Sequence record: NC_073315.1
DNA from: Escherichia phage vB_EcoS_fFiEco03
Strand: one strand, 5' to 3'
DNA length: 43,947 nt
The translations under genes were made by a program, and so were the position numbers. The notes beneath the pieces were generated by a model that worked only from the letters and a program-made list of their open reading frames with translations, was not told where the DNA came from and did not search any database. Shown piece after piece: positions 1 to 43,947 of the stretch. Each line of letters begins with the position of its first letter. The stretch's first letter is position 1.

Positions 1-1251
1 ATGAGTATTCAGCTATCCGCTCCTCAGGCGCTGTTCCTGAACTGCGATAACAAATACAAGGCCTATGTCGGTGGCTTCGGTAGCGGTAAGACGTTTGTTG
101 GCTGTCTGGACCTGCTTACATTCATGCTTAAGCACCCCGGTACGCGCCTTGGTTACTTCGGCCCGACCTACCCGGCTATCCGCGACATCTTCTACCCGAC
201 ATTCGAGGAAGCTGCTAACCTCCTGGGCCTTGATGTGCTGGTTAAATCTGGCGACAAAGAAGTCGTTGTTACCCGCGGTAAGACGGTGCTCGGTACGGTT
301 ATCTGCCGTTCGATGGATAACCCCGGCTCGATAGTTGGTTTCAAAATCGCTGCGGCGGTCGTGGATGAGTTGGATGTGCTTAGTCGTGAGAAAGCTGAAC
401 TGGCGTGGAACAAAATCGTCGCCCGTATGCGTCTGGTTATCCCTGGCGTAACCAACCACATCTCTGTAACCACGACGCCGGAGGGATTCAAGTTCGTCTA
501 TACCAAGTTCAAAGAGAACCCTACTCCGAGTTACTCAATGGTGCAGGCTTCTACACACGAGAATGCGCGATTCCTACCGCCTGACTACATTAGCTCACTG
601 ACCGAGACTTACCCCGCGCAACTGATTAACGCGTATCTGAACGGCGAGTTCGTCAACCTGACCTCCGGCAGCGTGTATTACGCCTATGACCGCCGTAAGC
701 ACCGCAGCAAAGAGACAATTCAACCGGGCGACACGCTGTACATCGGGCAGGACTTCAACGTTACGAAGAACGCCAGCGCCGTGTATGTGCAACGTAAAGA
801 CGGCTGGCACGCGGTGGCAGAACTGAAAGGTCTGTTCGATACGCCGGATACCGTGCGCGTAATTACAGAGAAGTGGAAGTCACAAGGCCACCGCATCGTC
901 GTTTACCCCGACGCCAGCGGCAAGAATCGCAAAACCAACTCGGCGTCAATCTCTGATATTGCATTACTCCAGCAGGCGGGGTTTGATGTTCGCGCTAAAT
1001 CCGCCAACCCGCCGGTTAAAGACCGTGTTTTAGCGGTGAATACCGCACTGGAAAAAGGTAAGCTGTGGGTTAACGACCACTTATGCCCCGAGATAGCGAA
1101 GACGCTGGAGCAGCAGGCATACGACGATAATGGAGAGCCAGCTAAAGACGGCGTAATCGACCATATGGCGGATGCCCTCGGCTATCCTGTAGTTTACGAG
1201 ATGCCGGTGGTTAAACCCGTAATCAACATCCCGGTGACTTTCGCACTTTAA
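1..1251 (+). CDS. terL: Terminase large subunit
   Basis: 416-aa ORF at window start; N-terminal Walker A-like motif GGFGSGKT; followed directly by the portal gene (terL-portal synteny). Confidence 0.9.
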   Translation: MSIQLSAPQALFLNCDNKYKAYVGGFGSGKTFVGCLDLLTFMLKHPGTRLGYFGPTYPAIRDIFYPTFEEAANLLGLDVLVKSGDKEVVVTRGKTVLGTVICRSMDNPGSIVGFKIAAAVVDELDVLSREKAELAWNKIVARMRLVIPGVTNHISVTTTPEGFKFVYTKFKENPTPSYSMVQASTHENARFLPPDYISSLTETYPAQLINAYLNGEFVNLTSGSVYYAYDRRKHRSKETIQPGDTLYIGQDFNVTKNASAVYVQRKDGWHAVAELKGLFDTPDTVRVITEKWKSQGHRIVVYPDASGKNRKTNSASISDIALLQQAGFDVRAKSANPPVKDRVLAVNTALEKGKLWVNDHLCPEIAKTLEQQAYDDNGEPAKDGVIDHMADALGYPVVYEMPVVKPVINIPVTFAL

Positions 1252-1263
1252 GAGGATTATTCA

Positions 1264-2745
1264 ATGTTAACTATGAACGGTCAGAATCAGGGTGTTAAGA
1301 CAAAACACCGGGAATGGCTGCATCACTTTGATAAATGGCAGAAGGTGCGCCATGCGCTGGAAGGCGACCTTATCCGTTACCTGCGTAACGTCGGGAAGAA
1401 CGAGCCTGACCCGACTTACGCCGCCCAACGCCAGGAGGAATACGAGAACGGCGCTATCTGCTACAACTTCACCAAGCGCACCCTGTCGGGTATGGTCGGC
1501 TCAGTTATGAGAAAAGACCCTGAGCAGATTATTCCTCGTGAACTGGAGTATCTGTTACGCAATGCCGACGGTTCTGGTGTTGGCCTGTGGCAGCACGCGC
1601 AGGATACGCTGATGGAGATTGACTCAGTAGGCCGTGGTGGTTTGCTGGTTGACGCCCCGGAAACAGCCGCAGCAACGGCAGCCGAACAGAACGCCGGATT
1701 ATTAAACCCGGTCATCGCATTCTACACCGCAGAGAACATCATCAACTGGCGACTCACTCGCGTAGGCTCGGTTAACCGCGTCACGATGGTAGTGCTGCGC
1801 GAGGTATGGGAGTATTCAGAACCTGGTGCGGAGTTTGAAACCAAATTCGGCGAACAATACCGCGTTCTCGACTTGACTGATGGCCGCTACCGCCAGCGCA
1901 TATACCGTTTCGATGCCGAAGGTGGTGCGCAGGGTGATGTAAAAGAAATCTTCCCGGAACTGGGCGAACAGTTGCGCGGAAAAATCCCATTCACGTTTAT
2001 TGGTGCGAGTAATAACGACGCGACGGTTGATGACGCACCTTTGCTGCCGTTGGCAGAACTCAATATCGGACATTTCCGCAACAGCGCAGACAATGAGGAA
2101 TCTAGCTTCGTCGTAGGTCAGCCTACCCTGTTTATCGCCCCAGGCGAGAATATGAGCATGGAGCAGTGGAAAGAGGCCAACCCTCACGGCGTGCGCATGG
2201 GTTCGCGTTCAGGCCACAACATCGGCTACGGCGGCAATGCGTTTCTGGTTCAGGCGGGAGAGAACAACCTCGCCAAGCAGAACATGCTGGATAAAGAGAA
2301 TCAGGCCATTCAGATTGGTGCGCAGCTTATCACCCCGACGCAGCAAATCACCGCCGAATCCGCCCGCCTGCAACGTGGTGCTGACACGTCAGTTATGGCG
2401 ACAATCGCACGTAACGTAAGCATGGCGTATACCGATGCGTTGCGCTGGGTAGCGGCGATGCTAGGGTTGCGTGAAGGCACAGAGATTGAGTTCAAACTTA
2501 ACATGGAGTTCTTCCTGCAACCGATGACCGCTCAGGACCGCGCTCAGTGGATGGCGGACATTAATGCCGGTCTGCTGCCAGCGACCGCTTACTACGCCGC
2601 GTTGCGTAAAGCAGGGGTGACTGACTGGACCGACGAGGATATTCAGAACGCTATTGAGGACGCACCTCTGCCGTTAGGTGCTGTTACTCAGGTGGCAGGA
2701 GAGATTCCGCAGTCGGCGCAGCAACAAGATGTCACTCAGCAGTAA
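1264..2745 (+). CDS. Portal protein
   Basis: 493-aa ORF immediately downstream of terL with AGAGGA RBS about 7 nt upstream; size and position typical of a siphovirus portal. Confidence 0.8.
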   Translation: MLTMNGQNQGVKTKHREWLHHFDKWQKVRHALEGDLIRYLRNVGKNEPDPTYAAQRQEEYENGAICYNFTKRTLSGMVGSVMRKDPEQIIPRELEYLLRNADGSGVGLWQHAQDTLMEIDSVGRGGLLVDAPETAAATAAEQNAGLLNPVIAFYTAENIINWRLTRVGSVNRVTMVVLREVWEYSEPGAEFETKFGEQYRVLDLTDGRYRQRIYRFDAEGGAQGDVKEIFPELGEQLRGKIPFTFIGASNNDATVDDAPLLPLAELNIGHFRNSADNEESSFVVGQPTLFIAPGENMSMEQWKEANPHGVRMGSRSGHNIGYGGNAFLVQAGENNLAKQNMLDKENQAIQIGAQLITPTQQITAESARLQRGADTSVMATIARNVSMAYTDALRWVAAMLGLREGTEIEFKLNMEFFLQPMTAQDRAQWMADINAGLLPATAYYAALRKAGVTDWTDEDIQNAIEDAPLPLGAVTQVAGEIPQSAQQQDVTQQ

Positions 2746-2754
2746 GTTCACATA

Positions 2755-2777
2755 TAGCCCCGAAAGGGGCTTTCTTA
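2755..2777 (+). terminator. Weak intrinsic terminator or attenuator hairpin after portal
   Basis: AGCCCC-GAAA-GGGGCT hairpin followed by TTCTTAT. Confidence 0.35.
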
Positions 2778-2781
2778 TAGT

Positions 2782-3858
2782 ATGCTATTAACTTTAGCGC
2801 CACAGGGTTTATCTATGAGCTTACTTACATCTCTAATCAGCCACCAGATATGGCTGCAACGCACTGCATCCGGTGAGGTGAAAGACCTCGCGCCGTTCAT
2901 TAAGGAGATGCGGGACGAAATAAAACGGCAGGTGCTGTTATTCGGTGACGACGGGCGGAGCACTGCGCGACTGAATAAACTGTTACTCGACCTTGAAGAA
3001 GCACTGACGTGGCTTACAGGTGACTGGCAAACAAAGCTGACAGAAGACCTTAAGGAACTGGCCGCATATGAGGCTGAGTGGAACGTAAAAACACTGACCG
3101 CCAACGTTGACGCGGAATTTGTTACGCCTACCGCCGAACAGGTGTGGGCTGCTGCCGAGTTTCAGCCGCTGTCGTTAAGCGACAAGCCCGTCGATTTCAC
3201 TAAGCTGATGGCAGGCTGGGGTGAAACGGAGGCCGCGCGCCTCGTAACCGGCGTTAAGATGGGGTTTGTTCAGGGCCAAACCACACGGCAGATTGTTAAA
3301 AATGTCGTAGGCGCTGGTGGGCTGGCGGACATCTCTGAACGCAACGCGGCTACGGTAATCCGCACCGCGCTGTCTCACGTATCCAACGAAGCCCGCAACG
3401 AGACATACCGCCAGAACGACGACATCATCGAGAAATACGAGTGGGTGTCAACGCTGGACAGCCGCACCAGCACGATTTGCAGGGCCAGAGACGGAATGAC
3501 GTGGGAAATTGGTAAAGGGCCGATGCCACCCGCGCATCCTAATTGCCGAAGCACCACCGCGCCTGTAATCAGTTCGGAGTTCGACTTCCTCGATAAAGGC
3601 GCAAAACGCGCGGCTAAGGGTGCGGACGGCGGTACTCAGGTAAGTGCAGACACCACCTATTACGAGTTCCTTAAACAACAACCGGCGTGGTTTCAGGATG
3701 AAGCATTAGGGCCAGTTCGCGGTAAGATTTTCCGTAACAGCGGTATATCGCCGGAAGAGTTTCGCGTAATATCTGTAGATGGTTTCGGGAATCCGCTCAC
3801 GCTTAAGCAGATGGCGGAACTCGATAAACGTGTTGCTGATTATCTGAAAGGGGATTAA
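2782..3858 (+). CDS. Head morphogenesis protein (SPP1 gp7 / Mu F-like minor head protein)
   Basis: 358-aa ORF in the terL-portal-morphogenesis order. No clear SD at 2782, and an alternative ATG lies at 2815, so the start is uncertain. Confidence 0.7.
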   Translation: MLLTLAPQGLSMSLLTSLISHQIWLQRTASGEVKDLAPFIKEMRDEIKRQVLLFGDDGRSTARLNKLLLDLEEALTWLTGDWQTKLTEDLKELAAYEAEWNVKTLTANVDAEFVTPTAEQVWAAAEFQPLSLSDKPVDFTKLMAGWGETEAARLVTGVKMGFVQGQTTRQIVKNVVGAGGLADISERNAATVIRTALSHVSNEARNETYRQNDDIIEKYEWVSTLDSRTSTICRARDGMTWEIGKGPMPPAHPNCRSTTAPVISSEFDFLDKGAKRAAKGADGGTQVSADTTYYEFLKQQPAWFQDEALGPVRGKIFRNSGISPEEFRVISVDGFGNPLTLKQMAELDKRVADYLKGD

Positions 3859-4319
3859 TGATGGGCTTTTTCAAAGTAACTGATGTACCCGCGCGCCGCG
3901 TAGTCCAGTACGCCCGTGTGTCTGGCTCCGGCGAGAATGTGGTGTTTATTGAAGATGAAAGTGTACTAGGTACACCGGTAGACGATATGCCGTTCGCAGA
4001 TAAAACCGGTATTGCGCTACCGGCGGCGGGCATGCTTTACGAGATTCCGTATCTGGCAGACGCTGGTGACGTGTATTTCTCTGTGCAACCGAAAGACACC
4101 GAGCTGGTCGACGGTAGCACCACCATCACCGTCGAAGTTAAGGCAGGTAAAGCGCCGTATGTACTGACCTGGTACAAAGACGGGAAGGAAGTGGTGAACG
4201 CCCCGGAAGAGGCTCTGTCTCTGACTGTTAATGCGGCTGGTGAATACTTCGTTAAAGTTACTGATGCTGATGGGGTAGAGGCGGTAAGCAAGGCGGCGAA
4301 GGTTACTAAGCCAGAATGA
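3858..4319 (+). CDS. Hypothetical virion protein with C-terminal Ig-like domain
   Basis: 153 aa; ATG overlaps the upstream stop (TAATGATG); C-terminal segment resembles the Ig-like fold motif also seen in ORF 7948..8298 (PY..W.KD). Confidence 0.45.
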   Translation: MMGFFKVTDVPARRVVQYARVSGSGENVVFIEDESVLGTPVDDMPFADKTGIALPAAGMLYEIPYLADAGDVYFSVQPKDTELVDGSTTITVEVKAGKAPYVLTWYKDGKEVVNAPEEALSLTVNAAGEYFVKVTDADGVEAVSKAAKVTKPE

Positions 4320-4323
4320 TAAA

Positions 4324-4353
4324 AGGCCCCGTTAAGGGGCCTTAGTTTTATTT
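4324..4353. terminator. Bidirectional intrinsic terminator at convergent gene ends
   Basis: AGGCCCC-GTTAA-GGGGCCT stem-loop followed by TAGTTTTATTT; lies between the + gene ending 4319 and the - gene ending 4348. Confidence 0.6.
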
Positions 4354-4869
4354 AAATCGCGCTGGCATTAGCACCATAAATGCAGTGTTTGAAAACGATA
4401 TTTTGCATCCTCTGGTTTGGTCCTGGAAATCGAAACGAGCAATTTCATTTTTGTATGCCTTAGAAATCTTGTGCGCGTCTGCCAAGTAGGGCATGGTAAA
4501 TCCTATGCTATCAACTGCCCCCGGCGTGATGTGCGCCACACGTCGCCAGTCAGGAAATTTTCCGTCTACAACATCCACCGGAAGTGTACATATAAGCGCA
4601 CGACTATCGTCATAGAAAGATACACTGCCGTTGTCGTGGTCTACTTCCGCGTAGTTAAATTTAGAAGGCTCTCTCCCTTTTATGTCTATGAGAGCCCCAT
4701 TCTCAACGTTTGTCTTAACATTGTCGCAGAACAATCTATGGCCGTCCGTAGACACTATCAATCCTTCCGGGTCTATGTAAAAAGCGTTCAGATAGTAGCG
4801 TACATCATTTTTAGCCCTGCAGATTTTCGCCCCTACATACGCGGGAAAAGTAATTACTGTGGCAACCAT
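4348..4869 (-). CDS. Truncated DnaN-like (beta sliding clamp-like) protein, 173 aa
   Basis: Contains DVRYYLN...TDGHRL, DGKFPDWRRV and C-terminal MVLMPARFK, matching E. coli DnaN landmarks (DVRYYLNGMLF...TDGHRL, DGRFPDYRRV, VVMPMRL) recalled from memory; AGGAG RBS and own promoter. Confidence 0.6.
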   Translation of the reverse strand: MVATVITFPAYVGAKICRAKNDVRYYLNAFYIDPEGLIVSTDGHRLFCDNVKTNVENGALIDIKGREPSKFNYAEVDHDNGSVSFYDDSRALICTLPVDVVDGKFPDWRRVAHITPGAVDSIGFTMPYLADAHKISKAYKNEIARFDFQDQTRGCKISFSNTAFMVLMPARFK

Positions 4870-4896
4870 TTTACATCTCCTGTTTAAGTTATCCGA

Positions 4897-4925
4897 ATAG
4901 TACCCTATTATGTTGGTGTCTGCAA
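4897..4925 (-). promoter_or_regulatory. Sigma70-like promoter, class I (TTGCAG-N17-TACTAT), drives the DnaN-like gene
   Basis: Read on the - strand: -35 TTGCAG, 17-nt spacer containing ATAATAGGG, -10 TACTAT. Same architecture as the promoters at 14663, 37107 and 38586. Confidence 0.55.
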
Positions 4926-4991
4926 ACTATTTGTTTACGTATTCCAGTTATTCCACTCAATTGTAAATGTTGGAATAAACTATTCGAATAG

Positions 4992-5020
4992 TTGACTTTT
5001 CACTAAAAATATGCTAAGCT
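4992..5020 (+). promoter_or_regulatory. Sigma70-like promoter, class III (TTGACT-N17-TAAGCT, extended -10 TG)
   Basis: -35 TTGACT, 17-nt spacer ending in TGC, -10 TAAGCT. Near-identical to the promoter at 36798..36826. Confidence 0.6.
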
Positions 5021-5026
5021 CCACCT

Positions 5027-5134
5027 GAGCTTGTGAAGTATGAACAAGCGACCGCGGCGCGGGCAGGTAACGGAGCGGGACGTAAGTCCTGAGTGTAGTT
5101 ACGCTGACGCGTTCGGTAGGGCCATACTCTATTG
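5027..5134 (+). ncRNA. Promoter-proximal conserved structured RNA element, copy A (candidate sRNA or cis-acting leader)
   Basis: Begins at the predicted +1 of the 4992 promoter; about 80 percent identical to 36832..36941; two hairpins conserved with compensatory changes; frame not conserved between copies; terminator follows at 5201..5228. Confidence 0.45.
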
Positions 5135-5200
5135 CTTGTGTAAAAAGTAACTGGTTTACTGAGATTACGCCGTTTCAGTGTTTAAATGATAAGGACTAGC

Positions 5201-5228
5201 GCCCCGCTTTATGGCGGGGCTTTACTTA
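5201..5228 (+). terminator. Intrinsic terminator downstream of RNA element copy A
   Basis: GCCCCGC-TTTATG-GCGGGGC 7-bp GC stem followed by TTTACTT. Confidence 0.5.
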
Positions 5229-5244
5229 TCGAGAAAGGAGAAAC

Positions 5245-5631
5245 ATGAATCTTAAAGCAACTGTCGTAGCGGGAGCATGTTTCATCATCCTGGCTTACGC
5301 ACACGGCATCTATCAGTACCGCAGCGGCTGGAACGAAGGCCGGGCGAATCTCGTTTCGCAGCAACAGCAGGAAGCACAGGCTGAGCTGGTGAAGAAAACA
5401 CAACGGCAGCAGCAGGATGAATCAAAGGCCGCCGCCGCTGACAACGAAGGCAAGACGAAATCAGAGGTGATTACCCGTGAAGTCGTTAAGTACATTAAAA
5501 CGCCTGGCCGCAGCGTGTGCACTTTCGACGATGCTCGCGTCCTGCTCAAGTCCCACGCCGTTGCCAACGCCAATTCCATCCCCGGATACGACGATGATGC
5601 AGCCGCCGTGCAAACTGGCACCGCCAAGTAG
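5245..5631 (+). CDS. i-spanin (Rz-like)
   Basis: 128 aa with N-terminal TM segment (ATVVAGACFIILAYA), Q/E-rich coiled-coil region, and an overlapping +1-frame lipoprotein ORF. Confidence 0.65.
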   Translation: MNLKATVVAGACFIILAYAHGIYQYRSGWNEGRANLVSQQQQEAQAELVKKTQRQQQDESKAAAADNEGKTKSEVITREVVKYIKTPGRSVCTFDDARVLLKSHAVANANSIPGYDDDAAAVQTGTAK

Positions 5632-5740
5632 CGACGCTGACGAGGATTTAGCTATCGACGTTCAGAACGCCGAATGCGTACGGCAATTGCGCCTGAAAGT
5701 ATTCATGTTGCAGGATTACGTGAGGAATATTCTGGAATAG
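5477..5740 (+). CDS. o-spanin (Rz1-like outer-membrane lipoprotein), overlapping the i-spanin gene in the +1 frame
   Basis: GTG start with AGAGG RBS; signal peptide ending in lipobox LASC; proline-rich mature part (SPTPLPTPIPSP). Confidence 0.6.
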   Translation: MKSLSTLKRLAAACALSTMLASCSSPTPLPTPIPSPDTTMMQPPCKLAPPSSDADEDLAIDVQNAECVRQLRLKVFMLQDYVRNILE

Positions 5741-5822
5741 TTGCCTTGCATGTTGGAATAATTTATTCTTGACATGTAAATCCGGGTGGCCCGGATTCCA
5801 ACGTCCAGGGGACATACTGACT

Positions 5823-6527
5823 ATGAATCGTTTTTTACGTTATCCGTTCCAGGAAGAAGCTGGGGCAGAAGATAAATCTGGCGGTGGCGACGCTCCAAAA
5901 ATGTTCACCGCTGAAGAAGTTCAGGCGCTGATTGAGAAAGAAGTTGCCGGACTTAAGGCCAATCAGGAAGCATTGCTGGCGGAGAAGAAAGAAGCTGCCC
6001 GTAAAGCAAAAGAGGCCGAAGAGGAACGTCAGCGCGCGCACCAGGAGGCGCTAAAAGCCGCCGGTAAGATGGACGAGTTCGAAAAGACGATTCGTAGCCA
6101 GTATGACCCGGTGTTAGCCGAGAAAGATGGTCGCATCTCCAAAATGGCAGAGCGCATCCTCGGCAGCGAACGTAAAGCGGTGTTAGGCTCTTTCGCAGGT
6201 GATTTCATCACACCGGAAGCAGTAGACATTCTTGCTCCGTTCGTTAAGACTGAGTTTGAAGGCGATGACGTGGTTACTAAGTTTGTTGGTGCAGACGGCA
6301 ACGTAATCACAACTGACCCGGAACAGTTCCGCAAGTACCTGCGCGAACACAAAGCGTTTTCGCATTTGATTAAAGCAAATGCAGCTTCCGGCGGCGGGGC
6401 TTCCGGTAGCAAAGGCGGCGGGGCCGCACCAGCGTTTAAAGACATGAGTGAAGCGGAGCGTATCGCTCTGTACGAATCGAACCCTGCCGAATTTGAACGG
6501 CAACTTAAAGCCCTGAGGAAAAAATAA
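5823..6527 (+). CDS. Scaffolding protein (putative)
   Basis: About 234 aa, highly charged and coiled-coil-rich (AEKKEAARKAKEAEEERQRAHQE), immediately upstream of and stop/start-overlapping the major capsid gene. Confidence 0.6.
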   Translation: MNRFLRYPFQEEAGAEDKSGGGDAPKMFTAEEVQALIEKEVAGLKANQEALLAEKKEAARKAKEAEEERQRAHQEALKAAGKMDEFEKTIRSQYDPVLAEKDGRISKMAERILGSERKAVLGSFAGDFITPEAVDILAPFVKTEFEGDDVVTKFVGADGNVITTDPEQFRKYLREHKAFSHLIKANAASGGGASGSKGGGAAPAFKDMSEAERIALYESNPAEFERQLKALRKK

Positions 6528-7576
6528 TGGCAATTACTACTATCGGCGATATCGTAACTGGTAAAGAATCGGTAATCCTGTCCTACATGACAGAGGACCC
6601 GGTAGAGAAAACCGCGTTCTTCCAGTCCGGTATCCTTACCTCGACTCCGTACGCCGCCGCTATCGCAAACGGCCCGTCCAACAAAGCTGTTCTGCCGTAC
6701 TGGAAAGCGATTGATACCTCTATCGAACCGAACTACTCGAACGATGTGTATCAGGATGTCGCCACCCCACGTAACGTGCAAACCGGTGAGATGGATGTTC
6801 GCGTGGCTTATCTGAACGAAGGTTTCGGCCAGGCGGATTTGACTGTTGAACTGACCAGCCAGAACCCGCTGCAATCCGTAGCGTCCCGTCTGGATAACTT
6901 CTGGCAGCGTCAGGCACAACGCCGTCTGATTGCTACCGCGCTCGGTCTGTACAACGACAACGTAGCCGCTACCGACGCATACCACGAGCAGAACGACATG
7001 GTAGTGGACGTGTCCGCAACCCTGGGCTTCGACTCGGGCGCGTTCATCGACGCTACCCAGACTATGGGTGATGCGCTGATGGGCAACGGCGGTGAAGTGT
7101 TGGGCGCTATCGCGATGCACAGCTTCGTATATGCGCAGGCACGTAAACAGCAGCTTATCGACTTCATCCGCGACGCCGATAACAACACCATGTTTGCTAC
7201 TTACCAGGGCTACCGCGTGATTGTTGACGACAGCATGACCGTAGTCGGCACCGGCCCGAGCCGTAAGTTCATCTCCATCATCTTCGGTAACGGTGCTATC
7301 GGTTACGGCGAGGGCAACCCGTCTAACCCGCTGGAATACGAACGCGAAGCGTCTCGTGGTAACGGTGGTGGCGTTGAAACCCTGTGGACCCGTAAGACCT
7401 GGTTGCTGCATCCGTTTGGTTACAGCTTCACCAGCGCGGTAATCACTGGCAACGGGACCGAGACTATCGCCCGCTCTGCTTCCTGGCAGGACCTGGCGAA
7501 CGCCTCCAACTGGAACCGTGTTGTTGACCGTAAGCATGTACCTATTGCCTTCCTGGTAACTGGCGTCGGTGCTTAA
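6527..7576 (+). CDS. Major capsid protein
   Basis: 349 aa following the scaffold gene (TAATG overlap) and followed by a strong terminator; position and size typical. Confidence 0.8.
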   Translation: MAITTIGDIVTGKESVILSYMTEDPVEKTAFFQSGILTSTPYAAAIANGPSNKAVLPYWKAIDTSIEPNYSNDVYQDVATPRNVQTGEMDVRVAYLNEGFGQADLTVELTSQNPLQSVASRLDNFWQRQAQRRLIATALGLYNDNVAATDAYHEQNDMVVDVSATLGFDSGAFIDATQTMGDALMGNGGEVLGAIAMHSFVYAQARKQQLIDFIRDADNNTMFATYQGYRVIVDDSMTVVGTGPSRKFISIIFGNGAIGYGEGNPSNPLEYEREASRGNGGGVETLWTRKTWLLHPFGYSFTSAVITGNGTETIARSASWQDLANASNWNRVVDRKHVPIAFLVTGVGA

Positions 7577-7591
7577 GGTTAAGATATAATC

Positions 7592-7620
7592 GAGAGGGAC
7601 TTCGGTCCCTCTTTTCATTT
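7592..7620 (+). terminator. Intrinsic terminator after the major capsid gene
   Basis: GAGAGGGAC-TTCG-GTCCCTCTT stem-loop followed by TTCATTT. Confidence 0.7.
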
Positions 7621-7635
7621 ACTAAGAGGTAAATT

Positions 7636-7935
7636 ATGGCCAAGACCGGAAAAGGCTTGCCGCGCAGCCTTCAGAATGTCGATTTCGGCGACTTTGATAT
7701 CCCAGTCACGCCTGCTACTACCAGCGTAGTTGGTGGCGTTAAAAAGTCAGCTACTGTAGCCGCACCTGCGGCGGTTACCGCTGGTGAAGGAGCGCAGTCT
7801 GCTGACGCCCCGACTAAGACCGAGTTCGATGCCCTTGTAGCTGAGTACAACAAACTCCGAACTGATGTTACCGCGCTGCGCACTACCGTAGCAGATCTGT
7901 TGACTGCGCTTAAAAACGCAGGAACCGTAAGCTAA
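7636..7935 (+). CDS. Hypothetical head-associated protein
   Basis: 99 aa with AAGAGG RBS; Ala/Thr-rich N-terminus and coiled-coil C-terminus. Confidence 0.45.
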   Translation: MAKTGKGLPRSLQNVDFGDFDIPVTPATTSVVGGVKKSATVAAPAAVTAGEGAQSADAPTKTEFDALVAEYNKLRTDVTALRTTVADLLTALKNAGTVS

Positions 7936-7947
7936 AGGAGCTTAAAA

Positions 7948-36162: not shown

Positions 36163-36220
36163 GTTGTATTTCCTTCAGCAAGTAATTTAGCCTCGGCGTT
36201 CACCGCGTCGGGGCTTTCTT

Positions 36221-36511
36221 TTATCTTTTAGCCAGACATTCCATCAAATGCTCGTACTTACGGTAATAATCTACGACAATCTCATCACCGAAATACTGAT
36301 ACACGTACGCTAAGTGGTCAGAGACATCGATGGAAGCCGACATTGTGCTGAGGCTTCTTAGACTAATCAACTGCAATTCTTCTGTAACGCAAAACGGCGA
36401 ATATGAGTCCAGTTTACAGGAAACGTTAAAACACAACGCGTATTCACCTTGCACTAAATAAACCATATAAGCATTGTCGTTCTCTTTATCGTGGAAAATT
36501 ACACCTTTCAT
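36221..36511 (-). CDS. Hypothetical protein, 96 aa
   Basis: ATGA-coupled to the upstream HTH gene; AT-rich. Confidence 0.45.
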   Translation of the reverse strand: MKGVIFHDKENDNAYMVYLVQGEYALCFNVSCKLDSYSPFCVTEELQLISLRSLSTMSASIDVSDHLAYVYQYFGDEIVVDYYRKYEHLMECLAKR

Positions 36512-36690
36512 TTCACGTTCTCCTTAATCCACGCTTCAACTTTATTGCGGTCGAATGTCCCTGGTAAACGGCGGCCCATAACCTTAATACAGCAATCCGG
36601 GAATTTGCCACTGCGCAACCAGTTATTAATTGTCTGACGTGTCACCCCGATACGTTCAGCTACTTCATTCTGGGTCATGTAATGCTGCAT
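36508..36690 (-). CDS. AlpA/Xis-like HTH DNA-binding protein
   Basis: Start at ATG 36690 with AGGAG RBS; MTQNEVAERIGVTRQTINNWLRSGKFP resembles the AlpA/excisionase HTH family. Confidence 0.55.
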   Translation of the reverse strand: MQHYMTQNEVAERIGVTRQTINNWLRSGKFPDCCIKVMGRRLPGTFDRNKVEAWIKENVK

Positions 36691-36721
36691 TTTTATATCT
36701 CCTGTTTGTTTAGTGGAACCG

Positions 36722-36750
36722 AGTATAGGATAGCGGGAATGTAAAAGCAA
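36722..36750 (-). promoter_or_regulatory. Sigma70-like promoter (TTGCTT-N17-TATACT) for the AlpA-like/primase operon
   Basis: On the - strand: TTGCTT, 17-nt spacer, TATACT; divergent from the 36798 promoter. Confidence 0.5.
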
Positions 36751-36797
36751 CCAAAACTGAACACAAAGTTACTAAGATGCAAAAGATGCTACTGGTA

Positions 36798-36826
36798 TTG
36801 ACTTTTACTTAAAAATATGCTAAGCT
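36798..36826 (+). promoter_or_regulatory. Sigma70-like promoter, class III (TTGACT-N17-TAAGCT, extended -10 TG)
   Basis: Near-identical to 4992..5020 (spacer differs at 2 positions). Confidence 0.6.
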
Positions 36827-36831
36827 TCACT

Positions 36832-36941
36832 GAGCTTGTGAGATATCGCAAGCGACCGCGGAGCGGCAGGGAACGCAACGCGTGCCATTAGGCACTTGAG
36901 TGTAGTTCCGCTGGCGCTTTCGGAAGGGCCAAAGTCTATTG
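36832..36941 (+). ncRNA. Promoter-proximal conserved structured RNA element, copy B
   Basis: Starts at predicted +1; alignable to 5027..5134 with one indel; hairpins GCTTGTG/CGCAAGC and GTGCC-ATTA-GGCAC correspond to GCTTGT/ACAAGC and GGAC-GTAA-GTCC in copy A. Confidence 0.45.
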
Positions 36942-37106
36942 TTAATCCCGCCTAAATACCCAAGTCACTGATAATTAAAAGTTTATATAGTTGCCGTAAG
37001 CAAGGTAGAGAGTACTTCACTCCGCTGGGGTGGGCTAACGCCCACCCACTGCGTTGCGTACTCTTTTAAGAAACGAAAGAATCACAACGGCAACGTAACT
37101 ATTCTC

Positions 37107-37135
37107 TTGCACACCCCAATATAATAGGATACTAT
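37107..37135 (+). promoter_or_regulatory. Sigma70-like promoter, class I (TTGCAC-N17-TACTAT)
   Basis: TTGCAC, spacer ACCCCAATATAATAGGA, TACTAT; followed by a conserved AACGAGA..GGAG leader. Confidence 0.6.
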
Positions 37136-37168
37136 TCACTTATCTAAACGAGACAGAGGAGTAGGGTT

Positions 37169-37360
37169 ATGTATAAGAAGGGGCAGTTGGCGACGACGAA
37201 ACGCGGTGGGCAGTACGTAATAGTGTTGCAGGACGAGAACGAGTATGACGAGGATAATATAGTCGAAGTATGGGGCCTGGTAAGAAAGAAACCCGGGTTC
37301 GCCTTACGCGATAATCTGGAATTAATTGGCAACAATTTTAAATTCAAAGGGGTGAAGTGA
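37169..37360 (+). CDS. Hypothetical early protein, 63 aa
   Basis: ORF with GAGGAG RBS downstream of the 37107 promoter. Confidence 0.5.
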   Translation: MYKKGQLATTKRGGQYVIVLQDENEYDEDNIVEVWGLVRKKPGFALRDNLELIGNNFKFKGVK

Positions 37361-37563
37361 TGGAAGAATTATTTGAAGAACTGAAACACCATAGATTAAT
37401 AGAAGTTAATTTCACAATTAAACGATACGCGATTGTCACACTTGATGATGAAGAAATTTCAACATCATCACCGGAGATGCTGGTTAAACTCCTGCGCTCC
37501 TTACGAACGGCATCGAATCATGATGCCCGTGCCGACGACTCTGAGGGAGGTTGCCGTGAATGA
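37357..37563 (+). CDS. Hypothetical protein, 68 aa
   Basis: Start/stop-overlapping ORF. Confidence 0.45.
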   Translation: MMEELFEELKHHRLIEVNFTIKRYAIVTLDDEEISTSSPEMLVKLLRSLRTASNHDARADDSEGGCRE

Positions 37564-37835
37564 ATAACACTGAGCTGAAAACAGTAGCGGAATATAACCA
37601 TAAAATACGGGTCATGCGTCGGGGTGCCGGGCTGGAGCAGTTTTATAACATGTGGCGCACTGCGACGCGCGACCCCGAGTTTCTTAGTACCGGGTATTAT
37701 TTCAATAAAGGCATTATCCCGATTCGTGCCCGCAAGGATTACGGTTGGGTGCGCGAGACACCTAATCTTATGTGGTGCTGGTATTGTGGTGAGTTCTGGG
37801 TGCACGTTAAAGAGAAGATGGTGAGTTATGAATAA
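37560..37835 (+). CDS. Hypothetical protein, 91 aa
   Basis: ATGA-coupled ORF. Confidence 0.45.
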   Translation: MNNTELKTVAEYNHKIRVMRRGAGLEQFYNMWRTATRDPEFLSTGYYFNKGIIPIRARKDYGWVRETPNLMWCWYCGEFWVHVKEKMVSYE

Positions 37836-37895
37836 TTACCCGTTTATTTTAATCGTCAGCGCCGTTTATGAGGCGCACGCGTTGTGGGGGCTGGT

Positions 37896-38087
37896 ATGAG
37901 AATTCGAATAACAAAGGTAAACAGTTTTCAACCCGCACCCTATGACGACCATCCGCTCTACCATTTCGGCGTGGCTGTCGGTGATGTGTTCGAGGTTGTG
38001 GAAGCGCATGGGTACGGGTTTATAGTCGAAACTGATGATGGACCGCTATTCATTAGACGCAGTGAGTGCGAAGTTCTGGAGGACTAA
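37896..38087 (+). CDS. Hypothetical protein, 63 aa
   Basis: ATG 37896 preferred over the GTG at 37884. Confidence 0.45.
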   Translation: MRIRITKVNSFQPAPYDDHPLYHFGVAVGDVFEVVEAHGYGFIVETDDGPLFIRRSECEVLED

Positions 38088-38090
38088 TTT

Positions 38091-38234
38091 ATGAGAGAAG
38101 CATTTGAACGGTGGGCCGTCGTCGAGGGTCTGCCGGTTAACAAGGGTTCAAAGAAAGAGTACCTGAACGTTAAGACGCGTCTCGCGTGGCGGGCGTGGAA
38201 AGCTGGTGTGTTGTCTGTTGCGAATCCGAGGTGA
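38091..38234 (+). CDS. Micro-ORF: 47-aa protein
   Basis: ATG with GGAGGA RBS; MREAFERWAVVEGLPVNKGSKKEYLNVKTRLAWRAWKAGVLSVANPR. Confidence 0.4.
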   Translation: MREAFERWAVVEGLPVNKGSKKEYLNVKTRLAWRAWKAGVLSVANPR

Positions 38235-38237
38235 GAT

Positions 38238-38429
38238 ATGGGTAAGTGGATTAAGTGTAGTGAGCGGATGCCGGAAAAGCTTGATGATGTGCTGGTTACT
38301 GATGGCGAGCATGTCGAGGTTAAATGGTGGAACGGTCGTATTTGGGATTGTTGGGCACCGCGTAACTCAGATATTAGTTACAAAGATGTAACTCACTGGA
38401 TGCCGTTACCCGAGCCGCCGGAAGTGTGA
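38238..38429 (+). CDS. DUF551-like protein
   Basis: 63 aa ending in VTHWMPLPEPPEV, recalled as the DUF551 signature. Confidence 0.5.
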   Translation: MGKWIKCSERMPEKLDDVLVTDGEHVEVKWWNGRIWDCWAPRNSDISYKDVTHWMPLPEPPEV

Positions 38430-38472
38430 TGTTATATTGTAACAATAGTTTGGGATTTTACTGAGTGACTTA

Positions 38473-38508
38473 CGCTGCTACACAGCAGCGTATCATTTTT
38501 CTCATTTT
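38473..38508 (+). terminator. Intrinsic terminator
   Basis: CGCTGCT-ACAC-AGCAGCG followed by TATCATTTTTCTCATTTTT. Confidence 0.65.
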
Positions 38509-38585
38509 TGTTCTATTTCACCAAACGCAACAATCGAAGCGACTATTGCAGGAGATGCAACAATACAAACACCAATAAAATTTAC

Positions 38586-38614
38586 TTGCACACTGGGATA
38601 GAATAGGCTACTAT
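38586..38614 (+). promoter_or_regulatory. Sigma70-like promoter, class I (TTGCAC-N17-TACTAT)
   Basis: TTGCAC, spacer ACTGGGATAGAATAGGC, TACTAT; conserved AACGAGAGGAG leader. Confidence 0.6.
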
Positions 38615-38635
38615 TCATTTACACAAACGAGAGGA

Positions 38636-38662
38636 GAGACGGAATATGAGTAACAAAAACGA
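38636..38662 (+). repeat. 27-nt direct repeat, copy 1 (RBS plus first 6 codons; copy 2 at 38821..38847)
   Basis: GAGACGgaATATGAGTAACAAAAACGA versus GAGACGtaTTATGAGTAACAAAAACGA (25 of 27 identical). Confidence 0.7.
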
Positions 38663-38834
38663 GCATTTGATTAAAGTTACCCCAGTATGGTCGGCGTGGG
38701 TTATTGCCTCTGATGGGAAGCACGTACCAAAATTCGTGTTCACTGATGAGAAAGTTGCGCGTGAGTGGCTTCGCGCCGGCAAGAAAGGTGAACGCGGCAT
38801 CATGAAGGTTGGGCTTGTAGGAGACGTATTATGA
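38646..38834 (+). CDS. Hypothetical protein, 62 aa (N-terminus MSNKNE)
   Basis: ORF with GAGGAG RBS; flanked by the 27-nt direct repeats. Confidence 0.5.
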   Translation: MSNKNEHLIKVTPVWSAWVIASDGKHVPKFVFTDEKVAREWLRAGKKGERGIMKVGLVGDVL

Positions 38835-38847
38835 GTAACAAAAACGA
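38821..38847 (+). repeat. 27-nt direct repeat, copy 2
   Basis: See 38636..38662. Confidence 0.7.
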
Positions 38848-39481
38848 AGTATTCGAGTACCTGATTGACCAGTTACGGCGGCAGCTACCGGTCGTAGATG
38901 TTATGGGTGAGATTGAACGGTGGAGTATCGACCGTAGTATCGCGGGTCGCGGTAACTATACCGACGAGGAAAACGCCATAATCGATGCTTACATCGGCCT
39001 GGAGCACAACCCGTACAAGCAACAGTGCGAAGGCCTGGCCCATGAAGTGCTGTCACTTAAGAATCAGTTACGTGATGCGTCGGCGCTGGTGGCTGAGTTA
39101 CAGAAAGAACTTGATATCGCCAATAGCACCGTCGTTCGTTTGCGTAAAGAGATAGCTAAGTCTACCGGTGACATTGGAGAATACATCGATGCCATGGAGC
39201 AATCCGGTTGCTGCAAAGAAGATACTCAGTACAACGCCTGGAGGCCTCATTACGGTGCACGACAACCTGTGCCGGATGGGACTATGGTATTTATCCGGTA
39301 TCGCAACGGGGAGGAGCCGAAACACAGTGTAGCAGCAGAAAAGCGGTCGTGGATTTGGGATGGAACATACGCAGACATAGTGGAATACAAGATTGACACA
39401 CAGGAATGCGAGCACAATTGGTTATATAGTAAACACAAAAGTGGCTTCGTTTGCTTTAATTGCGGAGCGCGTAAGCCATGA
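38831..39481 (+). CDS. Hypothetical protein, 216 aa (N-terminus MSNKNE, Cys-rich C-terminus)
   Basis: ATGA-coupled; C-terminal C...C..C pattern (ECEHNW...FVCFNCG). Confidence 0.5.
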   Translation: MSNKNEVFEYLIDQLRRQLPVVDVMGEIERWSIDRSIAGRGNYTDEENAIIDAYIGLEHNPYKQQCEGLAHEVLSLKNQLRDASALVAELQKELDIANSTVVRLRKEIAKSTGDIGEYIDAMEQSGCCKEDTQYNAWRPHYGARQPVPDGTMVFIRYRNGEEPKHSVAAEKRSWIWDGTYADIVEYKIDTQECEHNWLYSKHKSGFVCFNCGARKP

Positions 39482-39681
39482 CCAGCATCTTATTTATCTG
39501 GGTATTGTCCGCAGGCCAGATGCAACTAGCGGCATCAGAAACGTTTTATTCGATGGAGGCGTGCCAGTCAGCGGCACGCGCCGCAGAGAACGCGCACTTC
39601 CTGTTCCAGGGCGACAAGCCCAACGATTCAGAGGTACGCGCTATCTGCTCACCTAAGCGACTTGGTAAACAGGAGAAGTGA
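39478..39681 (+). CDS. Hypothetical exported or membrane protein, 67 aa
   Basis: Hydrophobic N-terminus (ILFIWVLSAGQMQLAA). Confidence 0.45.
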   Translation: MTSILFIWVLSAGQMQLAASETFYSMEACQSAARAAENAHFLFQGDKPNDSEVRAICSPKRLGKQEK

Positions 39682-39866
39682 TTATGGTACAGAGATATAG
39701 CTACAACCCGATGTTCGGGTTTACTCCTGATGTTGAAGGCGGGTTAGTGCTTTACGAAGATTACGCAAAACTCGAAGCCGAGTTACAGAAATACAAAGAC
39801 CAGTTCCCGGATTACGTCGAGTGCGCGAACTGTGGGTCAGTTACACATGTGGAAGGGGTGGAGTGA
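39678..39866 (+). CDS. Hypothetical protein, 62 aa (MVQRY family, paralog 1)
   Basis: Shares MVQRY...Y.KLEA.L with the next gene. Confidence 0.45.
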   Translation: MIMVQRYSYNPMFGFTPDVEGGLVLYEDYAKLEAELQKYKDQFPDYVECANCGSVTHVEGVE

Positions 39867-40060
39867 TGGTACAGAGGTATGAGGTGGAAAAATGGGGCCT
39901 GCCAGAGCCTGAGATGGCTGAGTACGCATACGGCGATTATGTAGAATACGACGCTTATCTTAAACTGGAAGCAAAGTTACGTGAATTCGCTGAACAGGTA
40001 ATGTACGAACCTTGTTCGAAAGTTACAGAAGAAATGGCCCGCGAGATTCTCGGAATATGA
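39866..40060 (+). CDS. Hypothetical protein, 64 aa (MVQRY family, paralog 2)
   Basis: ATG overlaps the upstream stop (GTGATG). Confidence 0.45.
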   Translation: MVQRYEVEKWGLPEPEMAEYAYGDYVEYDAYLKLEAKLREFAEQVMYEPCSKVTEEMAREILGI

Positions 40061-40350
40061 GCCTTGCAACTGACATCCTGAAACGAAGCGGCCTTGCGCC
40101 GCTGTCACCGAGAACGAACACCCGAATATACAAGCGCCGCCGTAACGCGCTGTACCCTGAGATTCAAGCCAGACGCAAAGCAGTCCGCGCCTGCGGATTC
40201 CAGAACGGGAAGGCCGTTAACCTGGGTGAGTTTAAAACACAGGAACGCGCAGCAATCGCTAATCGGTTATTTAATTACTGGAAATCGCTGGGGTACGATG
40301 ATATTCCGACGAAACCGCAGAGACGACAATACATCTGGAGACACAAATAA
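40057..40350 (+). CDS. Basic AP2-like DNA-binding protein (putative regulator)
   Basis: Start at ATG 40057 (ATGA-coupled); AP2-like core NGKAVNLGEFKTQERAAIANRLF; Arg/Lys-rich. Confidence 0.4.
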   Translation: MSLATDILKRSGLAPLSPRTNTRIYKRRRNALYPEIQARRKAVRACGFQNGKAVNLGEFKTQERAAIANRLFNYWKSLGYDDIPTKPQRRQYIWRHK

Positions 40351-40425
40351 ACCGTTATTAGGATAATTCCTACTCGTGGTATCCTCCAGTTACTGCATAC
40401 TTAATACGCACCTGGAGGATTCATC

Positions 40426-40734
40426 TTGGATAAATTTACTGAAACAGTGACTGGCTGGCTTCTGGCTGCCGCACTCGCCGGAGGAGTCATCGGACTACGA
40501 CAACATAAGTCCGTTATTTCTGGCCCTATCGACGGCTTCTGCTTTATTGCAACTGGCTTCACTTGCGCCGTATTTGGTGCACCTCTCGCCGCCCAATGGT
40601 TCGGTATCACCGGCGAGCGCGAGATAGCTGGCCTCGGATTCATTATCGCTATTCTCTGGATGCCCATCTATTCCCGCCTCTCCGGTATCGTCGCCGGAGA
40701 ATACATCGCACGTCGAGGAGGCCCGGATGAATGA
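40426..40734 (+). CDS. Holin (3 predicted TM segments)
   Basis: TTG start with GGAGG RBS; three hydrophobic segments; first gene of the holin-holin-endolysin cluster. Confidence 0.55.
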   Translation: MDKFTETVTGWLLAAALAGGVIGLRQHKSVISGPIDGFCFIATGFTCAVFGAPLAAQWFGITGEREIAGLGFIIAILWMPIYSRLSGIVAGEYIARRGGPDE

Positions 40735-40999
40735 GTTATTCTGGTTCGGTGGTATGCTGGCAATCGGGGGTACATCGCTGTTTAATGTGTATCATCCCAG
40801 CGTGGACGACGGGCTGTTCGGCCGGGTGCTCTATATCCTGACCACCATCGTTTGCGCCGCCGGATGTATCCACCTGTTACAGGGCAGCATGTCACCTACA
40901 CTGCCTGAGACATTAATCACATTAGTTGCGCTGCGCCAGATTCGTCAGGCGTGGCTGTCATATGGGGGATATAAGCGTGTCTCGAAACATCTCAGATAA
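40727..40999 (+). CDS. Holin/antiholin-like membrane protein (2 TM)
   Basis: 90 aa with two hydrophobic segments; overlaps both neighbours. Confidence 0.45.
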   Translation: MNELFWFGGMLAIGGTSLFNVYHPSVDDGLFGRVLYILTTIVCAAGCIHLLQGSMSPTLPETLITLVALRQIRQAWLSYGGYKRVSKHLR

Positions 41000-41465
41000 T
41001 GGCTTGCATTTCACCGCCGCGTTCGAGGGATTCCGCGGAACTGCGTATCGTGCTACGCCGAACGAGAAGTACCTGACGATAGGCTACGGCCATTACGGGC
41101 CGGATGTAACCCCAGGTAAGACCATCACACCGGGGCAAGGCCTCCTGCTACTTAATCGTGATATGGCTAAGGCCGTAGCTGCGGTTGACGCCGCAGCGCA
41201 CCATTCGCTTACACAGGCACAGTTCGACGCAGTATGCGACCTGGTGTACAACGCAGGTGCTGGCGTTATTGCGGCTACTACAGGAACCGGTAAGGCTCTG
41301 CGTTCTGGTGATATTGCGACGCTACGGGCTAAACTGGCGCTGTTTATCAACCAGAACGGCAAACCGCTACTCGGCTTGCGTCGCCGTACTGCGGGCCGTC
41401 TGGCCCTGTTCGACGGCAAACCGTGGCAGGAGGCAGAGGCTATCGGGCGCGCGGTGAAAGGTTGA
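40962..41465 (+). CDS. Endolysin (lysozyme, GH24-like)
   Basis: Start at ATG 40962; catalytic region FEGFRGTAYRATPNEKYLTIGYGH matches the phage lysozyme E...D/C...T(I)G(Y)GH pattern. Confidence 0.8.
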   Translation: MGDISVSRNISDNGLHFTAAFEGFRGTAYRATPNEKYLTIGYGHYGPDVTPGKTITPGQGLLLLNRDMAKAVAAVDAAAHHSLTQAQFDAVCDLVYNAGAGVIAATTGTGKALRSGDIATLRAKLALFINQNGKPLLGLRRRTAGRLALFDGKPWQEAEAIGRAVKG

Positions 41466-43126: not shown

Positions 43127-43278
43127 AAAAGTTAACTGTATACTGGAAAACAGGGGCTACGTCAGAACTCGATGTTTTCAGCGTAACGCAGTGTGAAAAG
43201 TTCTGGTATGCCGAAACATTCAACGGTGAAGTGAGAATCCCAATCGCACTGGTAGACGGCGGTGATATAACAGAATAG
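43123..43278 (+). CDS. Micro-ORF: 51-aa protein
   Basis: ATGA-coupled; followed by a terminator. Confidence 0.4.
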   Translation: MKKLTVYWKTGATSELDVFSVTQCEKFWYAETFNGEVRIPIALVDGGDITE

Positions 43279-43288
43279 CCCGCCAACA

Positions 43289-43312
43289 AGCCCTCTACGG
43301 AGGGCTTTTCTG
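43289..43312 (+). terminator. Intrinsic terminator
   Basis: AGCCCTC-TACG-GAGGGCT followed by TTTCTGT. Confidence 0.6.
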
Positions 43313-43340
43313 TACATCCCGCCCAATCCCCTTATATAAT
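43312..43340 (+). promoter_or_regulatory. Candidate late promoter (perfect -10 TATAAT, weak -35 GTACAT) upstream of terS
   Basis: TATAAT at 43335..43340 with a poor -35 at 17-nt spacing; predicted +1 lies at the start of an inverted-repeat leader. Confidence 0.4.
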
Positions 43341-43405
43341 CCCTTTAGACGCGTAGGGCGCGTCTGGTGCGCTCTGATGGTCAGACGCATATGCAAGGGG
43401 ATTAT

Positions 43406-43947
43406 ATGAAACTTACACTTAAGCAGCCATCGCCAGAGGTGGTGCAAGCTGCACATGAAGAGGCTGTTAGTGCCAACCGTCGCCGTAAACGACCGCGGGG
43501 TAAACAGAGCCTTTACCAGTCATCCCGTAATTCTGCGGCATTGTGGGACCCGGACTATTGCGACGAGTTAATCCGGTTCTTTGACCGCAACTCATGGGAA
43601 CTCGTACCTACGTCCAAGGGTGACGAACGCCCGCTGATTCAGGATAAACCCCCGTCACTGGCCCGCTTCGCCTTACACATCGGCGTAACTATCCCTATTA
43701 TTAAGCTGTGGTTGCGTGAGATTCCGGCGTTTGCAGAAGCCTATGAAACCGCTCAGGCGCTGGAAGAGGCGTATTTCACTGAGACAGGCGCTGCCGGTAT
43801 CTCCGCTACGTTTGCTGCGGCTAAGCTGGGCTTAAGCAAAGAGAAACCTGTTGAATCCTCCGAAGAAACTGCGCCGACTGAGATTGTGTTCACCGTAGCG
43901 GAGCCGGTAGGTAAAATCGTTACCACGAACATGGGTGAGGTAGGGGA
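43406..43947 (+). CDS. terS: Terminase small subunit (runs off the window end, no stop seen)
   Basis: Open frame from ATG 43406 (AAGGGGA RBS) to the end of the window; basic N-terminal region; sits immediately 5' of terL in the circularly permuted map. Confidence 0.6.
   Translation, partial: MKLTLKQPSPEVVQAAHEEAVSANRRRKRPRGKQSLYQSSRNSAALWDPDYCDELIRFFDRNSWELVPTSKGDERPLIQDKPPSLARFALHIGVTIPIIKLWLREIPAFAEAYETAQALEEAYFTETGAAGISATFAAAKLGLSKEKPVESSEETAPTEIVFTVAEPVGKIVTTNMGEVG

Follow-up and report, generated by a model that had tools for sequence, protein, structure and literature searches.

The window, which is the whole stretch of 43,947 bp analysed here (50.5% GC by base composition count), opens on the first base of a terminase large subunit gene and closes inside the gene for the small subunit. 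Is sequence missing between these two ends, are they the ends of the DNA in the virion, or do they merely mark the place at which a circular record was opened? The genes concerned are listed below.

1..1251, + strand: terL, terminase large subunit, 416 aa (Pfam, PHROG and the annotated start in relatives)
1..4, + strand: final base of terS (GA/A, Glu181) and its stop codon TGA, overlapping the terL ATG as ATGA (reading across the join)
1264..2745, + strand: portal protein (DUF4055 / PHROG 145), the gene that follows in the packaging module (Pfam, PHROG)
2782..3858, + strand: head morphogenesis protein, Phage_Mu_F (Pfam, PHROG)
43406..43947, + strand: terS, terminase small subunit, 180 full codons plus 2 nt (PHROG 3064 'terminase', 2.5e-72)
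43937..43947, + strand: Shine-Dalgarno region of terL, GAGGTAGGGGA, parted from terL by the linearisation (sequence reading; conserved in 9 relatives)

The terminase genes at the two ends

The terL product matches the Pfam families Terminase_6N (1.9e-21), Terminase_6C (4.3e-11) and Terminase_3, and also the PHROG families of the terminase large subunit. Read back across the join of the two ends, the terL frame meets an in-frame TGA at nt 43936–43938, which leaves the ATG at position 1 as the sole start available to terL; all relatives inspected have terL annotated from there. As the sequence-only reading had it, terL begins at nt 1, where the ATG opens an ORF of 416 aa, and the terS frame runs beyond the 3′ end with no stop codon.

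The frame homologous to terS is named terminase small subunit in the annotations of relatives. Besides ATG 43406, translation could begin in frame at GTG 43367 or ATG 43391. ATG 43406 appears preferable, since an AAGGGG Shine-Dalgarno sequence lies 6 nt before it and the more distant homologues, at 54–59% identity, begin at the same position (MKLKLK). The same two points disfavour GTG 43367, which is annotated as the start in several records.

From ATG 43406 the terS frame stays open to nt 43947, without a stop in the linear window (ORF reading). When nt 43947 is joined to nt 1, the sequence reads ...GGG GA/A TGA, a Glu codon followed by a stop. The shortfall of terS at its 3′ end is one nucleotide of the final sense codon plus the stop codon, and all four nucleotides are window nt 1–4. 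The gene is join(43406..43947,1..4), with 542 of its 546 nt at the right end. The identical 4-nt overlap of terS and terL is annotated in Hrm2, Ivi, HSE2, L223, phiSD1 and Ro145clw. The earlier statement that the linearisation splits terS holds in so far as the cut falls in this gene, but only one nucleotide and the stop codon are displaced. It had also been expected that the missing terS 3′ end, with any pac-related sequence in it, would lie immediately before position 1. Since the last four nucleotides of terS are window nt 1–4, the whole gene, including any pac site within it, is already inside the window.

Comparison of the two terminase proteins with PDB sequences by phmmer gave only noise for either. 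TerS had no Pfam match, and a profile of 21 terS sequences found zero matches in the PDB. The AlphaFold2 model of terS (pLDDT 57, pTM 0.39) was too poor for a fold search. Likeness of terS to P22 gp3 was detected by none of Pfam, phmmer or the profile; the sole source for this relation is an annotation note in the fPoEco01 record (HHpred 99.5).

Relatives of the window

The ICTV criterion for a genus is at least 70% nucleotide similarity over the whole genome. About 82% of the positions of the window match fPoEco01 (identity times length, summed and divided by 43,947), and the best nucleotide matches of the window are all Kagunavirus records. The gene order is that of the genus: terS, terL, portal, head, tail and tailspike genes share a strand, and the replication module lies on the opposite one. 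The window also fits the size of about 41–45 kb, the GC content of about 50% and the absence of tRNA genes of the genus, a tRNA scan having found none in the window. By these sequence features the window is a Kagunavirus (Guernseyvirinae), a K1G-like siphovirus of E. coli.

The closest record compared is the Kagunavirus fPoEco01 (MT711526 / NC_073317), with about 82% identity overall and 96% in the right half. It is colinear with the window from nt 1 to the end and opened at the same terL ATG. Being a circular record, it has terS annotated whole as join(43850..44391,1..4). fPoEco01 has HNH and intein-type insertions of its own at 3846–4538 and 28046–28939, the latter inside the DNA polymerase gene, while the window has an HNH-AP2 insertion at 26502–26999. 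The tailspikes of the two differ, and the receptor-binding part of the window's tailspike had no close DNA match. An exact-match search with the tailspike protein of the window gave nothing, and an exact 40-mer from the tailspike occurred neither in IMG/VR nor in JGI metagenome contigs. An antisense ORF of 529 codons lying over the capsid gene was rejected as a real gene for most of its length, being an effect of codon bias.

The type members K1G, K1H and K1ind1-3 (GU196277-81) are about 88–90% identical to the window and have tailspikes specific for the K1 capsule; their records, too, run from that terL nucleotide to a point within terS. Sciku, Shashou, Snoke and Schulenburg (MK931438-41), Kagunavirus phages that are headful by PhageTerm and 90–93% identical over the structural half, are instead opened before terS, at the equivalent of window nt 43355, and both terminase genes are intact in them.

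Mode of DNA packaging

Analogy with these and other relatives indicates that the window's phage uses headful packaging with circular permutation. Read-based PhageTerm analysis gave pac/headful packaging for five members of the subfamily, Sciku, Shashou, Snoke, Ro145lw and the Jerseyvirus SeF1 (PMC6753286, PMC6776780, PMC6776784, PMC6454146, PMC9409062), and fBC-Eco01 yielded no termini (PMC9825357). Serratia phage eta, which has a structural cassette in common with the window, was circularly permuted by restriction mapping (PMC3918226). With headful, circularly permuted relatives, the ends of the window would not be physical ends.

A complete genome whose record was rotated to terL could still come from a virion with fixed ends, either cos or short terminal repeats as in HK97-like phages. 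The paper on JSSK01 grouped the K1G-like terL with '3′ cos (HK97)' terminases in a neighbour-joining tree (PMC11641727), and the generic text of the fBC-Eco01 paper mentions a cos mechanism (PMC9825357). The PhageTerm results and the lack of fixed termini in fBC-Eco01 itself argue the other way. The terL of the window falls in both Pfam families of P22 gp2 and in neither family of HK97 gp2 (TerL_ATPase and TerL_nuclease), although Terminase_6N and Terminase_6C also occur outside headful phages and the published tree disagrees. BLASTP with terL gave no significant alignment to P22 gp2 or to HK97 gp2; what sets the P22 and HK97 proteins apart with respect to this terL is their Pfam membership and nothing else. 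Fixed virion ends are improbable for this phage.

P22 (NC_002371) offers a parallel to the split gene. It packages by headful, and its linear record likewise splits terS (gene 3) over the origin, at 41461..225. Its terL has Terminase_6N and Terminase_6C like that of the window, though the proteins lack similarity detectable by BLASTP. The P22 record was opened at the experimentally known pac site within terS, and its 225-nt split is biologically meaningful, whereas the 4-nt split in the window is purely conventional.

Continuity across the join

An artificial junction made of the last 700 nt and the first 700 nt of the window aligned as a single 1400-nt stretch in Hrm2, ORH_001, Ivi and fEg-Eco19, and was covered to at least 80% by 41 records in nucleotide alignment. 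The join is ungapped in at least 10 relatives and metagenome contigs that carry the site internally, including a Jerseyvirus of about 86% identity; gaps at the join were checked base by base at five loci and later at nine. Hrm2 and fPoEco01 are identical to the window over 54–65 nt around the join (54 nt for Hrm2). Two metagenome contigs encode an identical terL protein with terS directly upstream and the 4-nt overlap; these contigs are only about 90% identical to the window in DNA and therefore represent a different strain. Colinearity with full-length relatives extends over the whole window. In the rotated record of Ivi, window nt 41826–43947 correspond to nt 3839–5922 and window nt 1–12075 continue directly at nt 5923–17995.

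The suggestion of a record rotated to terL is borne out, as at least 12 relatives (17 records and one in reverse complement, among 60 listed), the circular record of fPoEco01 included, open at the same nucleotide; such a shared opening point is therefore not due to chance. Re-circularising phage assemblies to begin at terL is standard practice (PMC11783317). Other Kagunavirus records are opened upstream of terS, 29 nt before terL or in mid-genome, and one is opened 4 nt after the terL ATG in reverse orientation.

The description of the record as near-complete has to be given up, for no sequence is missing: the join completes terS and is ungapped wherever the site is internal in relatives. For a lost stretch just before position 1, with the end of terS and perhaps a pac site in it, one can cite the lack of a stop in the terS frame inside the window. 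Against it are the last base and stop codon supplied by the join, the gapless junction in every relative with an internal site (the Jerseyvirus of about 86% identity among them), the same 4-nt wrap annotated in fPoEco01, and the long-tailed terS homologues, which finish at the same residue (...MGEVEE). Such a loss has very little chance of being real, and from the comparison with relatives a genome continuing past the ends of the window is very unlikely. That the ends are real DNA ends, with the left one at the terL ATG, has nothing in its favour but the coordinates themselves and can practically be dismissed, since a terminus there would cut an overlapping gene pair and leave terL without its Shine-Dalgarno sequence, Kagunavirus records are opened at many different places, and no terminal direct repeat was found on comparing the ends of the window.

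The reading frames, the completion of terS through ATGA, the gapless junction in relatives, the colinearity and the common opening point were all directly observed. The window is very probably a complete, unit-length Kagunavirus genome of a headful group, a circle opened at the A of terL, with ends that are bookkeeping; that this isolate closes into a circle, packages by headful and is physically permuted we infer from its relatives. In the probable course of events, virions of this group would contain circularly permuted, terminally redundant DNA from headful (pac) packaging, so that short-read assembly would collapse to a circle without natural ends. The circle would then have been opened at the first base of the terL ATG, by a person or a tool such as Dnaapler, a convention common in the genus. 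Because terS and terL overlap by ATGA, such a cut would leave terS 4 nt short (one nucleotide of Glu181 and the TGA), with the ribosome-binding site of terL at the far end of the record.

The noncoding leader upstream of terS

The most prominent side observation is a conserved noncoding leader of about 120 nt (43288–43405) upstream of terS, with the following elements.

43288..43313, + strand: terminator-like hairpin AAGCCCTC-tacg-GAGGGCTT followed by TTTCTGT, end of the upstream gene block (inverted repeat, sequence reading)
43311..43340, + strand: sigma-70-like promoter TGTACA-18-TATAAT, 10/12 match (promoter scan; conserved in relatives)
43334..43407, + strand: leader with nested inverted repeats AGACGCG/CGCGTCT and GCGTCTG/CAGACGC (inverted-repeat search)

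The hairpin is unchanged in relatives except for one substitution in L004, and a simple terminator scan of the + strand did not call it. The promoter is likely to be the start of the packaging and structural operon. In the repeat-bearing part, the outer pair, ATATAATCCCTTT and AAGGGGATTATAT, can pair the −10 region with the Shine-Dalgarno sequence and ATG of terS, and the computed minimum free energy of folding is −39.3 kcal/mol (z −3.95). Over nine relatives from two genera the leader has 97% identity, versus 84–93% for the flanking coding sequence, and so exceeds in conservation the essential genes next to it. Three AGACGC motifs in alternating orientation lie within it. An Rfam search gave no match.

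The position resembles that of pacL in SPP1, just upstream of terS. By this analogy the leader could conceivably, though we think it rather unlikely, be the pac region of Guernseyvirinae, a switch for terS translation, or both. As a switch, it would allow terS to be translated only from late-promoter transcripts, the ribosome-binding site being sequestered in read-through transcripts.

Consequences for the record and the genus

The position of the ends matters for annotation only, and the truncation of terS is an ordinary record-keeping artefact. On a circular record terS is best given as join(43406..43947,1..4). The other option is to open the record past the terminator, near nt 43314, which leaves terS, terL and the terL ribosome-binding site intact. 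On the linear record automated gene callers overlook terS or cut it short, and it is absent from ORF lists that discard end-crossing frames. No biology is hidden past the ends of the window. The phage adds a new member to a genus already well sampled; the nearest of the records compared is about 82% similar to it.

Completion of terS across the ends of the record

The window is 43,947 bp long with a GC content of 50.5%. The gene for the terminase large subunit (terL) begins at its first nucleotide, and the frame of the small subunit gene (terS) runs off its 3′ end. The sequence-only reading had stated both, and the Pfam and PHROG matches and the reading of the frames confirm them.

Features of the window
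1..1251, + strand: terL; ATG at nt 1, ORF of 416 aa with Pfam and PHROG matches
1264..2745, + strand: portal gene (DUF4055 / PHROG 145), downstream of terL
2782..3858, + strand: head morphogenesis gene, Mu-F-type, after the portal gene
22745–24736, especially 23134–24735, + strand: tailspike; C-terminal two thirds without close DNA match
26502–26999, − strand: HNH_3 + AP2 homing-endonuclease gene within the replication module
27855–30110, − strand: DNA polymerase gene, 751 aa, uninterrupted
43288–43407, + strand: leader with terminator-like hairpin, sigma-70-like promoter TGTACA-18-TATAAT and nested inverted repeats
43406..43947 (open at the window end), + strand: terS; ATG 43406, PHROG 3064, annotated in relatives

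The terL ORF matches Terminase_6N (1.9e-21), Terminase_6C (4.3e-11) and also Terminase_3 in Pfam, and belongs to PHROG large-terminase families. Read across the join of nt 43947 to nt 1, its frame contains a TGA at 43936–43938; therefore the ATG at nt 1 is the sole possible start. The terL Shine-Dalgarno sequence, GAGGTAGGGGA, occupies nt 43937–43947, at the opposite end of the record from terL.

The terS product matches PHROG 3064 'terminase' (2.5e-72), and the annotations of relatives call it terminase small subunit. Other in-frame starts are GTG 43367 and ATG 43391, with a stop upstream at 43346. From ATG 43406 the frame has no stop up to the last base, and the 542 nt (43406–43947) comprise 180 codons plus 'GA'. 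Appending window nt 1–4 completes GAA TGA, which encodes Glu181 followed by a stop. Thus the 'missing' 3′ end of terS is four bases, the first four of the window, and the terS TGA and the terL ATG share bases in the common ATGA arrangement.

Homologues with the long C-terminal tail of the window's terS terminate at the identical residue. The alignment (window 43830–43947) displays two tail variants, the long one of the window's type, with the ending ...EPVGKIVTTNMGEV(G/E)E, and a short one with the ending ...KVVSGER. With 25 clusters among 5.8 billion proteins, the terS family is small. Pfam searches, PDB sequence searches and a terS structure model did not reproduce a relation of terS to P22 gp3; the terminase sequences found no useful match in the PDB, and the predicted model was too poor in quality for use.

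The join in related phages

An artificial junction of the last 700 and first 700 nt of the window aligns in one piece, exactly 1400 nt, in Hrm2, ORH_001, Ivi and fEg-Eco19, whose records are opened elsewhere, and at least 80% of it is covered in 41 records. At the base level the join has no gap in nine relatives, including the Jerseyvirus L223, a Shigella phage and two metagenome contigs whose terL protein is identical to the window's. Across the join the sequences of Hrm2 and fPoEco01 equal that of the window. The annotated terS ends 3 nt past the terL start in Hrm2, Ivi, HSE2, L223, phiSD1 and Ro145clw, the same ATGA overlap. The fPoEco01 record is circular and starts at the same base; its terS annotation spans the origin (43850..44391 + 1..4). 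The window's situation matches it exactly.

The proposal of a rotation to terL, with terS cut by linearisation, therefore stands, but judged from the relatives nothing is missing. Any pac-related sequence within the 3′ end of terS, proposed to lie just before position 1, is very probably not outside the window, since nt 1–4 complete terS and the join is gapless in relatives.

Opening point and packaging

At least 12 related phages are opened at exactly the window's nucleotide (K1G, K1H, K1ind1-3, fPoEco01, fFiEco02, fKuEco01, fTaEco01, fTaEco03, phiEc4 and, reversed, EcoPhCCP1). Jersey, Sciku and its siblings are opened before terS, eight OZ0357xx records 29 nt upstream of terL, and further relatives in mid-genome or, reversed, 4 nt past the terL ATG. 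Circular phage assemblies are routinely rotated to terL, for example with Dnaapler (PMC11783317). Because relatives share or vary the opening point and rotation to terL is standard, the opening point is a convention. Such a record convention was already known, and the genus is well sampled. PQ436005, PQ423993 and PQ429079 present a mirror-image artefact: reverse-complemented and cut 4 nt past the terL ATG, they keep terS intact and leave terL without its ATGA. In the P22 RefSeq record terS is likewise split over the origin, but there the split lies at the mapped pac site, 225 nt from the start of the record.

A cut within an overlapping gene pair is no physical end, whichever packaging mechanism operates. 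The relatives suggest that the window's phage would package by headful. Read-based PhageTerm analysis gave headful/pac for Sciku, Shashou, Snoke, Ro145lw and the Jerseyvirus SeF1, the first three being 90–93% identical to the structural half of the window, and found no fixed termini for fBC-Eco01. Serratia phage eta, which has its structural cassette in common with K1G/K1H, shows circular permutation and terminal redundancy by restriction mapping (PMC3918226). P22 gp2 has the same two Pfam families as the window's terL, Terminase_6N/6C, whereas HK97 gp2 has TerL_ATPase/TerL_nuclease, neither of which the window's terL matches. That K1G-like phages have HK97-like 3′ cos ends instead has a low probability, although a neighbour-joining tree grouped K1G-like terL with '3′ cos HK97' (PMC11641727).

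Completeness and variable regions

Over its entire length, starting at position 1, the window is colinear with fPoEco01. In the comparison with the rotated Ivi record, window 41826–43947 corresponds to Ivi 3839–5922 and window 1–12075 to Ivi 5923–17995; as Ivi 5922 and 5923 are consecutive, the blocks adjoin exactly at the join. The window differs from these relatives by cassette swaps at internal sites (tailspike, homing endonucleases, small early genes). Its size is within the genus range of 40.6–45.8 kb, and it has no terminal direct repeat. Judged from these comparisons, the genome is not near-complete but complete.

Its genus is Kagunavirus (Guernseyvirinae), and the phage collection contains 282 records related to the window; similarity (~82% to fPoEco01) and gene order both place it there. 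That figure is the share of window positions identical in fPoEco01, the closest record compared. The collection contains no record that is more than 95% identical over most of the genome, and under the 95% rule the window probably represents a new Kagunavirus species.

Among 50,697 phage records, nothing close at the DNA level turned up for the C-terminal two thirds of the tailspike, which also lack a Pfam hit; the DNA matches reach at most 75% identity, over the first 38%, and the exact protein is not in a large protein collection. The tailspike probably confers a new receptor specificity. At the site of the HNH_3 + AP2 gene there is a cytosine methyltransferase in Ivi, and in fPoEco01 there are small genes only; relative to both, the gene is a window-specific insertion. 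The fPoEco01 polymerase, annotated as 1032 aa, differs from the window's by an 894-bp insert (28046–28939), probably an intein, and the fPoEco01 HNH gene (3846–4538) is not in the window.

A 529-codon stop-free antisense stretch (6032–7618, − strand) faces the scaffold and major capsid genes; in Ivi and fPoEco01 its length is the same. Its codons are in register with those of the capsid gene (6527–7576), which uses TTA/CTA/TCA 0 times against about 9 expected (structural-gene average 2.5%); thus most of the stretch is a codon-bias artefact rather than a gene. The scaffold-facing part is in a different register.

The leader upstream of terS

Searches of the window with Rfam and for tRNAs returned no match. 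The nested inverted repeats of the leader carry three AGACGC motifs, and their outer stem, 13 nt long, can pair the terS Shine-Dalgarno sequence and ATG with the −10 region. The leader RNA folds at −39.3 kcal/mol (z −3.95). Nt 43308–43397 display 97% identity among nine relatives of two genera, against 84–93% for terS/terL coding sequence and 40–50% just upstream; because the block is nearly invariant, a covariation test is impossible. The leader is a candidate for a pac region or for a translational switch. Unusually conserved and structured, this noncoding stretch (43288–43405) is the sole item here that deserves a second look.
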